From NCBI GenBank assembly GCA_964016885.1, contig OZ024741.1:159092001-159156000 (forward strand): DNA of 64,000 nt, given 5' to 3'. Position 1 is the first letter of the stretch. Each line of letters starts with the position of its first letter. The position numbers and the translations under genes are program-made. The notes below the pieces were generated by a model. The model was not told where the DNA came from. It saw only the letters and a list, made by a program, of their open reading frames with translations, and ran no database searches. Positions 23,631 through 24,620 of the stretch are shown here, piece after piece. The stretch comes from Eledone cirrhosa. Taxonomy: Eukaryota.

Positions 23631-24620
23631 TGTAGGATTCACATGCAGCAGCTGTGCTGAAACAGCAAGCAAACAGCCACAGGAAACAAGTACCACCAAT
23701 CTCTGGGAGGGCCCTGTAGAAACAGTAGACAGCTTCTGCTACCTAGGTGACCGAATTAGCAACGGAGGTGGGTGCTCAGAAAGTACAATAACTAGGGTAA
23801 GAACGGGATGGAAGAAGTTTAGGGAACTACTACCACTGCTAGCTGCAAAAGGCTTCTCCCTCAGAATGAAAGGCAGACTGTATGATGCGTGTATCCGAAC
23901 AGCGATGTTGCATGGTAGTGAGACCTGGGCGCTGAAGGTGGAAGATTTACGTAGATTAGAGAGAAACGAAGCCTGCATGCTCCGATGGATGTGTAACAGT
24001 AATATACGTGAACGACAAAGCATAAATGAATTGAGAGAGAGACTGAGCATAAGAGGAATCAAATGCTGCGTGCAGGAGAGGCGGTTACGCTGGTATGGAC
24101 ATGTGATGCGTATGAAGGATGACAGCTGCATAAAAAGGTGCAGAGCACTAGAAGTTGATGGAAACCGCGGAGTGGGGAGACCCAAGATGACTTGGGATGA
24201 GGTGATAAAATCCGACCTTACCCAACTACACCTCTCAAAGTCAATGACACACGACCGTGACTTCTGGCGTCACGCAGTAATACAGGGTACCCGACCTCCC
24301 ATGGGTACATGCTGAAGCATATAAACAATATGCCCCCCCACCCCCCCCCACCGCAAGGTGGTCGTGGAGGTGCCACGGCAAAAAAGCACCCAGCCCACAC
24401 TGTAAAGTGGACGTGTAGGCGCCACGAAAAAGCACCCAGCACTCACTGTAAATGAGGTTGGTGTTAGGAAGGGCATCCAGCTGTAGAAATCAAGCCAGAT
24501 CAGTTCCTGTATGAGCAAGGCATGGTCAGCCGACCAGACACTGCCCACAACAGGACAACCCGTCTAACCCATGCTAGCGTGGAAGAACGGACGTAAAACG
24601 GTGATGATGATGATGATGAT
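23631..24620 (+). mobile_element. RTE family A, 5'-truncated
   Basis: FTCSSC...DSFCYLGD...[11 protein letters not shown], stop at 24315, UTR and (GAT)n tail. Confidence 0.95.

Follow-up and report, generated by a model that had tools for sequence, protein, structure and literature searches.

The locus raises the question of why a retrotransposon would carry a string of small RNA knots behind its stop codon. The window (the whole 64,000-nucleotide stretch of Eledone cirrhosa DNA that was analysed) comes from a 3.0 Gb genome rich in microsatellites and retroelements, and the feature studied is the 3′ UTR of a 5′-truncated LINE, a copy of RTE-A with its ORF stop at 24313-24315. A sequence-only reading of the window had described this UTR as consecutive H-type pseudoknots, shared with a second family (RTE-B) and a SINE, and had proposed a virus-like module standing in for a poly(A) tail. 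The names RTE-A and RTE-B are kept from that reading; RTE-C is a third family, named in this analysis (Table 1).

Families and Genome Setting

The elements have a single ORF with an APE endonuclease and a reverse transcriptase (RT), a microsatellite (GAT)n tail and 5′ truncation, features by which RTE elements are recognised; the clade label is presumed from this architecture and the sequence-only reading. Among 7999 candidates scored, 1938 relatives had E <= 1e-50, and many of these relatives consist of a single ORF of ~1050 aa with endonuclease (PF03372), RT (PF00078) and PHD domains. The endonuclease motif is present in full-length copies, and RT (RVT_1) and PHD domains were identified in related ORFs of the window. 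The proteins of RTE-A and RTE-B are 73-78% identical at the amino acid level, and those of RTE-A/B and RTE-C 61-69%. Exact-pattern searches of the genome returned 7,014 matches to an RTE-A UTR word, 25,317 to an RTE-B UTR word and 158 to an RTE-C leader word. Neither AATAAA nor ATTAAA occurs in the RTE-A UTR. The three families themselves are probably already catalogued in Repbase/Dfam.

Several features of the setting were observed alongside. A PHD-like finger lies between the RT and the C-terminal part in the window (27462-28337, 24959-26590 and 38870-40861) and in many relatives, and it is possibly a chromatin-targeting or nucleic-acid-binding domain. RTE-A and RTE-C copies stand tail to tail around an (AT)n tract (24600-24730), and (AT)n microsatellites harbour most of the copies in the window, which suggests a target preference. 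In addition, a MITE-like element of ~1 kb with long imperfect terminal inverted repeats occupies 21020-22070.

Table 1. Features of the retroelement copies in the window (positions counted from its first letter).
Feature	Position	Strand	Remarks
RTE-A ORF, 3′ part	23632..24315	+	5′-truncated copy
First hairpin	24348..24361	+	Shares G24361 with PK1
PK1, larger knot, unit 1	24361..24390	+	First stem 6-7 bp, closing stem 4-5 bp, A-rich loop
PK2, small knot, unit 1	24391..24410	+	3 bp + 4 bp
PK3, larger knot, unit 2, decayed	24410..24436	+	4-bp first stem; C.A mismatch in closing stem
PK4, small knot, unit 2	24437..24456	+	Marginal stability
Core hairpin	24456..24489	+	6-bp stem, internal loop, 3-bp stem, AGGAAG loop, plus A-rich run
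Core hairpin parts	24457 (GTTGG), 24466 (AGGAA), 24477 (CCAGC); 24504 (TTCCT)		
Putative vestigial ATG, RTE-A	24511..24513	+	32 nt after core motif; aligns with RTE-C start codon context
Terminal stem-loop and (GAT)n tail, RTE-A	24560..24620	+	
Further RTE-A 3′ UTR	19736..19996	+	
Further RTE-A 3′ UTR	47792-48055		
RTE-B array and core	28482..28612	+	ORF end 28340; ATG 28630; tail 28671-28730
Other RTE-B 3′ UTR	23111..23372	+	
Other RTE-B 3′ UTRs	13922-14185, 31111-31356, 45544-45794		
RTE-C copy, 5′-truncated	38858..41191	-	Same tail type; 3′ UTR without module
Other RTE-C copies	24681-26592, 43190-43757, 49047-51580		
tRNA-head SINE	20179..20505	+	Head, body, one RTE-A-type unit and core, RTE-C tail
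Other SINE copies	7623-7923, 15932-16258, 36163-36523		
SINE copies	44278-44601, 54377-54686	-	

The Knot String in the 3′ UTR

All the stems and motifs were found where the sequence-only reading had placed them, and its picture of a string without spacers holds, since the elements abut and the first hairpin runs into PK1. Its claim of consecutive H-type knots stands for PK1 and PK2, which pass a strict H-type test, and not for the mismatched PK3 and the marginal PK4, which both fail. By this descriptor, whose thresholds are our own and were chosen after the sequence had been seen, RTE-A has two knots (PK1 and PK2) and RTE-B three; none of 300 dinucleotide shuffles matched the knot number of either array (maximum 1), and the reverse strands gave 0 knots. 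The SINE array holds one strict knot, a number equalled by 11/300 shuffles. Folding of the whole UTRs, computed without knots, gave z values of only -2.16 and -1.67. PK2 and PK4 have 3-bp first stems, which come to +0.1 kcal/mol as isolated hairpins and are unstable by themselves. Compact knots are thus plausible, above all PK1 and PK2.

A 46-nt tandem repeat underlies the string, PK1+PK2 being one copy and PK3+PK4 the other, so the four knots are really two, duplicated, and the number of knots is a product of tandem duplication. A truncated small-knot unit seems to have left the first hairpin as its remnant. The further knot proposed between AGGAA in the core loop and TTCCT downstream is not conserved: RTE-C offered no partner, and of the 35 metagenome clusters 5.4 had a partner for AGGAA at +8..+40 nt, compared with 2.1 for a control window, and no positional peak appeared. 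An alternative GCA/UGC pairing at ~+14 occurs in 17.9/35 clusters against 4.2 in the control; it competes with the upper stem and, in a core fixed by the search pattern, can show no covariation. With Rfam models, no relevant match appeared in 20000-30000, 24300-24600 or the RTE-C leader, and the octopus-type units gave no Rfam match to a self-cleaving ribozyme (twister, HDV-like, pistol or hammerhead).

Compensatory Change

The compensatory changes that had been claimed for the string are present in the first stem of the larger knot, in the first hairpin and in the small knot, and are sparse in the stems that close the knots. The larger knot was aligned over 10 units, six from this genome and four from metagenome loci. 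In this alignment 82.7% of cells are paired against 74.9% in shuffles (0/500 as high), a test in which related sequences can beat such shuffles. Both-side changes were found in 5/7 pairs of the first stem and 0/4 pairs of the closing stem, in which 90% of cells are paired. When three distant homologues were added, all four closing-stem pairs changed on both sides, with 39/48 cells paired, a level reached in 44/5000 shuffles. The four 3′-UTR units alone were paired no more than shuffles. The unit alignment used leaves out decayed copies; with them, the small knot is misaligned and 53.8% paired.

The double change reported for the first hairpin of the SINE (CCACT-GCAA-AGTGG) was borne out, as U-A is found in 23/25 SINE copies and 4/17 RTE-A copies, and C-G in 12/17 RTE-A copies. 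Furthermore, the pairing-preserving swaps in the small knot are clean double changes (CUCA/UGAG versus CCACA/UGUGG, and CCAC/GUGG versus CCAU/AUGG), and its 3-bp first stem is invariant and hence uninformative on covariation. The core hairpin is supported by a consensus fold and varies by one-side changes only, in a sequence fixed by the search pattern.

The Core Hairpin as a 5′ Leader Module

The hairpin that follows PK4 was searched for with a 23-nt pattern, which identified 118 metagenome loci (121 matches in 35 sequence clusters) whose hosts we infer to be animals. Of the 122 core matches, those with an RTE ORF nearby include 13 metagenome loci in which the core precedes the N-terminal part of the ORF, and none in which it lies in a 3′ UTR; two rows that had appeared to follow an ORF are the end of a separate element and an ORF-internal match. 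Nine metagenome rows include the endonuclease motif, at +200 to +269 nt from the core, and seven of them (5 clusters) have an in-frame AUG at +28 to +38, the other two having broken frames. RTE-C has its AUG at +25 or +29 in 5/11 rows, the rest with broken frames, and several RTE-C copies carry an out-of-frame ATG at +13/+14. The spacing from core to AUG in intact leaders is thus fixed at +25 to +38, as would be expected of an IRES or other cap-independent translation element. In one metagenome locus (L073), a twister-P1 match (E 2.6e-07, below the gathering score) overlaps the 5′ end of the core.

In this genome the RTE-C leader carries the larger and small knots, then the core, before the ORF (loci L170, L228 and L003; the L228 ORF is 97% identical to the RTE-C of the window). 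RTE-C leaders contain 1-12 units of ~89 nt, which add a third, variable stem pairing, and the core follows the units in 23 of the 26 loci examined out of 30 fetched. The module was absent before the (GAT)n tail in 14/14 RTE-C ends of a 1.66-Mb sample. A knot lies upstream of the core in only ~3/33 metagenome clusters, where 0.9 would be expected, so that knots do not belong to the module in general. Of four sequencing runs presumed to be of RNA, three contain hundreds of contigs that cover the core and, ahead of it, a related single unit, which concerns presence in other organisms and not expression. Viral contigs gave no core match and no RTE locus.

A second leader type was observed in L037 (~785-875, +) and L056 (~200-270, +), in which an H-type knot and a short hairpin precede the core; both stems of the knot differ between the two loci yet pair, without an Rfam match, and decayed relatives stand before the core in L018, L172, L178 and L273. 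This could be an unclassified ribozyme-like motif. In L225 (9046-9081), two decayed core copies lie in inverted orientation a few bases apart. A 9-nt complement to invariant core bases (window 24469-24477) occurs in the 18S rRNA of this genome, at offset ~2442 of a 2.87-kb match; as a signal this pairing was rejected, being not significant by shuffling (P about 0.07). The 18S gene of this genome is unusually long.

Loss in Front and Retention Behind the ORF

In RTE-A and RTE-B the arrangement is reversed. Twenty RTE-A regions were fetched and 13 reach the endonuclease motif; a unit or core was found in 0/13, of which 9 show the whole leader. These nine leaders are C-rich and CCAAT-bearing, like that of RTE-B, and the core was found beside 0/20 RTE-B leaders. 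Full-span fetches of RTE-B placed the core behind the ORF in 17/20, the other three showing no RTE-B end, and in 5 of the 17 full-length copies the core is doubled. A young RTE-B subfamily (L329, L333, L340, L342 and L348) was seen to carry a 112-nt duplication that includes the core hairpin. In the 1.66-Mb sample the core lies behind the ORF in 10/12 A-type and 20/23 B-type ends, the misses being two ends cut by locus ends, one core indel and two ends without a core. Old intermediate families (L020, L171 and L306) also carry the module behind the ORF.

The 3′ copy retains traces of a leader. In RTE-B an ATG stands 28 nt after the core motif, in a context that aligns with the RTE-C start, and older copies have ACG in its place; this ATG and its RTE-A counterpart are read, from the alignment, as vestigial starts. 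The main result of the sequence comparison is that the module is not native to the 3′ UTR, but is a copy of an RTE 5′ leader module that now follows the stop in RTE-A and RTE-B. The simplest history would be one relocation in the A/B ancestor via a leader-plus-tail piece, and the structure found, in which a segment with homology to an RTE 5′ UTR precedes an RTE 3′ end, is that of a bipartite element. The similarity of the A and B modules could in part come from exchange of modules between elements.

The tRNA-head SINE, of which 21 copies occur in the 1.66-Mb sample, is non-coding yet keeps the module. Its head scores 27.7 bits against the tRNA model, below the cut-off, and ARAGORN found no tRNA gene.

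Constraint and Decay of the 3′ Copy

Between RTE-A and RTE-B the module is 83-89% identical (units 41/49 and 38/46, core 34/38) and the tail 35/39, compared with 40-42% at fourfold sites (29/72 and 61/146 identical). Young (n=9) and old (n=8) RTE-B copies differ at 5/97 sites in the array and 9/141 in the spacer; of the five array changes, two break larger-knot pairs and one adds a small-knot pair. The closing stem is also broken in the RTE-B counterpart of PK3, and old copies contain long, decayed arrays grown from the unit. The hairpin is the most constrained piece; the knot string, an addition specific to the lineage, is partly decaying. Expansion of the 46-48-nt unit to at least 20 copies was observed in old insertions (L178:1734-2835, L176:8400-10000 and L191:1-1180), a minisatellite derived from the module.

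A roadblock to RT at the array was considered and rejected, given no clear excess truncation, with 76/92 copies spanning the array. Copy loss was 0.087 per 100 nt across the array versus 0.065 in the ORF, and so no strong block is recorded.

What the Module May Do

The reading that we tentatively prefer, at somewhat less than an even chance, is that the module is a relocated RTE leader element and likely a ribosome-loading RNA rather than a poly(A) substitute. Ribosome loading is favoured by the fixed AUG spacing, by a cap-removing ribozyme ahead of the core in at least one element and by precedents for leaders that support translation. In the leader, the core hairpin, helped by compact knots, would bind an initiation factor or the small ribosomal subunit and set the AUG, which would matter for RNA whose cap a 5′ ribozyme has removed. 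In the A/B ancestor, the part of the leader from the C-rich stretch to just past the AUG would have been joined to a 3′ tail; this leader-plus-tail piece, as in bipartite non-autonomous RTEs, would have become the A/B 3′ end, and the 5′ copy would then have been lost. From its place behind the ORF, or within the SINE, the module may still dock the RNA on ribosomes, and docked RNA might gain enhanced translation and/or have its tail placed beside newly made RTE protein. Alu is an analogue for SINE RNA docking on ribosomes near nascent RT protein. As for the precedents, the parts of the sources available describe structured ribozyme-containing leaders that support translation in R2, L1Tc and Perere-3 (PMC6765202, PMC8501958). 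Against ribosome loading count the ACG of older RTE-B copies, the out-of-frame ATG at +13/+14 in several RTE-C copies, the array changes between young and old RTE-B, the rarity of knots before the metagenome core, the lack of both-side changes in the core, the non-significant 18S complement and the possible exchange of modules between elements. In addition, the Pol III-type SINE and most metagenome clusters are non-coding and still keep the core, which protein binding explains more simply.

Such binding is the content of the strongest rival, a possible but doubtful one, by which the module is a position-independent platform for the element's own protein, used in RNP assembly or template choice, like the structured RNA ends of R2. 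Many ORF-less metagenome elements (core plus tail), as well as the SINE, keep it, and RTE-A, RTE-B and RTE-C each have the module at exactly one end. Furthermore, a 5′ pseudoknot is a binding target of the R2 protein and, in vertebrate A-clade R2, the 3′ UTR also contains a pseudoknot, according to the accessible portions of PMC6765202 and PMC12503042, and RTE-1_MD templates are built with both cognate UTRs in the accessible part of PMC13708176. However, a protein platform does not by itself explain the fixed distance of 25-38 nt to the AUG, and 100-250 nt separate the module from the priming end. In addition, a single core sequence accompanies proteins that are 61-78% identical here and far less elsewhere, which a host factor fits better.

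It is unlikely that the 3′ copy is a passenger, i.e., a tail acquired from a bipartite element, whose terminal stem-loop alone matters and whose knot string is a decaying, slippage-prone repeat. The 46-nt period, the degenerate arrays in old copies and the unit number of 1-12 would suit it, as would the broken closing stems in PK3 and its RTE-B counterpart and the lack of extra conservation of the array between young and old RTE-B; tail swaps with 5′-UTR pieces are documented in the text available of Kojima 2018 (PMC5786205). Against it stand the A/B match at 34/38 core positions and 83-84% of unit positions, with fourfold sites almost saturated, retention in the old families L020, L171 and L306, compensatory change in the first hairpin within RTE-A, and the duplicated core in 5/17 full-length RTE-B.

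A role for the units as DNA-level promoter or enhancer monomers, with the pairing incidental, is quite unlikely. The 89-nt leader monomers are tandem and variable in number, and may be likened to the tandem monomers of mouse L1 promoters. Where RTE-C has units, the A and B leaders carry a CCAAT motif, and the accessible text of PMC5786205 proposes transcription-factor binding for conserved RTE 5′ domains. Yet the strand-specific knots and both-side changes point to RNA, retention behind the ORF or within a tRNA-head SINE would not be expected of promoter monomers, and the core adjoins the AUG rather than the start of the element.

The original proposal, in which a 3′ domain of knots like that of tobamoviruses takes the place of poly(A) in RNA stability or translation (or else stops exonucleases), is very unlikely: a position ~100-250 nt from a presumed non-poly(A) end without AATAAA, retention in the 3′ UTR over long divergence and the TMV upstream pseudoknot domain, which stimulates translation and is replaceable by poly(A) (PMC5382211, in the part accessible), all agree with it, but the home of the module is a 5′ leader (that of RTE-C and of 13 metagenome loci), RTE-C has the same tail without it in 14/14 ends, a non-coding SINE carries it and copy loss records no strong block.

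Known Systems and Significance

Among the closest known systems are the bipartite RTE elements of Kojima 2018, described in the accessible text of PMC5786205, which share a 5′-UTR piece joined to an RTE tail; the SINEs reported there share the layout of tRNA head, body, RTE5′ and RTE3′. By eye, the Ceph/RTE-3_BF segment is like the frame of the larger knot, and the HaSE1/RTE-2_DPl segment like the core (PMC5786205, as available). In contrast to those elements, autonomous LINEs here have the 5′ piece in their 3′ UTR and have lost the front copy. The supplement text of PMC5786205 does not contain the exact core sequence, though its Fig. S4 alignment is an image that could hold it, and the accessible main text gives no RNA structure for RTE segments. 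RTE-2_OV of Octopus vulgaris has, in the text available of Petrosino 2022 (PMC9115989), a single ORF of ~1100 aa, a 5′ UTR of ~600 nt and a microsatellite directly after the ORF, as RTE-C does, a likeness drawn from the description alone; that text describes no UTR structure.

Ribozyme leaders (HDV-like in R2, L1Tc and RTE, twister in Perere-3) likewise place a structured leader before a single ORF, and in L073 a twister match lies directly upstream of the core; however, the octopus-type units match no ribozyme model and the conserved part is downstream of the ribozyme. The R2 5′ pseudoknot and the A-clade R2 3′ pseudoknot are also knots in non-LTR RNA ends that are kept in internally deleted parasites, but they belong to another clade with another sequence, and R2 has a single knot bound by the R2 protein where a tandem string is found here. 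The tobamovirus upstream pseudoknot domain shares consecutive small H-type knots ~100 nt or more before a non-poly(A) end; unlike it, the present string has no sequence or Rfam match to that domain, no tRNA-like end and a 5′-leader origin. As the sequence-only reading had supposed, the searchable literature, which misses most subscription papers, yielded no prior description of knots in RTE UTRs, nor of the core motif or its relocation.

It is a further possibility, though we doubt it more than we believe it, that RTEs across animals share a compact ribosome-docking element, a hairpin ~30 nt before the AUG with optional tandem pseudoknots, which would work from either RNA end as an initiation leader, as a 3′ enhancer after natural relocation, and as the means by which RTE-dependent SINEs capture nascent reverse transcriptase. 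Why RTE 5′-UTR pieces persist in many SINEs and non-autonomous elements is posed as an open question in the accessible text of PMC5786205. Development of RTE elements into RNA-only gene-insertion tools, with both UTRs on the template, is under way (PMC13708176, in the part available), and a defined, movable cis element would be useful there. The fixed spacing to the start codon offers a concrete translation hypothesis. Finally, a single genome holds a natural swap, with the module in front of the ORF in one family, behind it in two and borrowed by a SINE, so that its job is testable with short RNAs.
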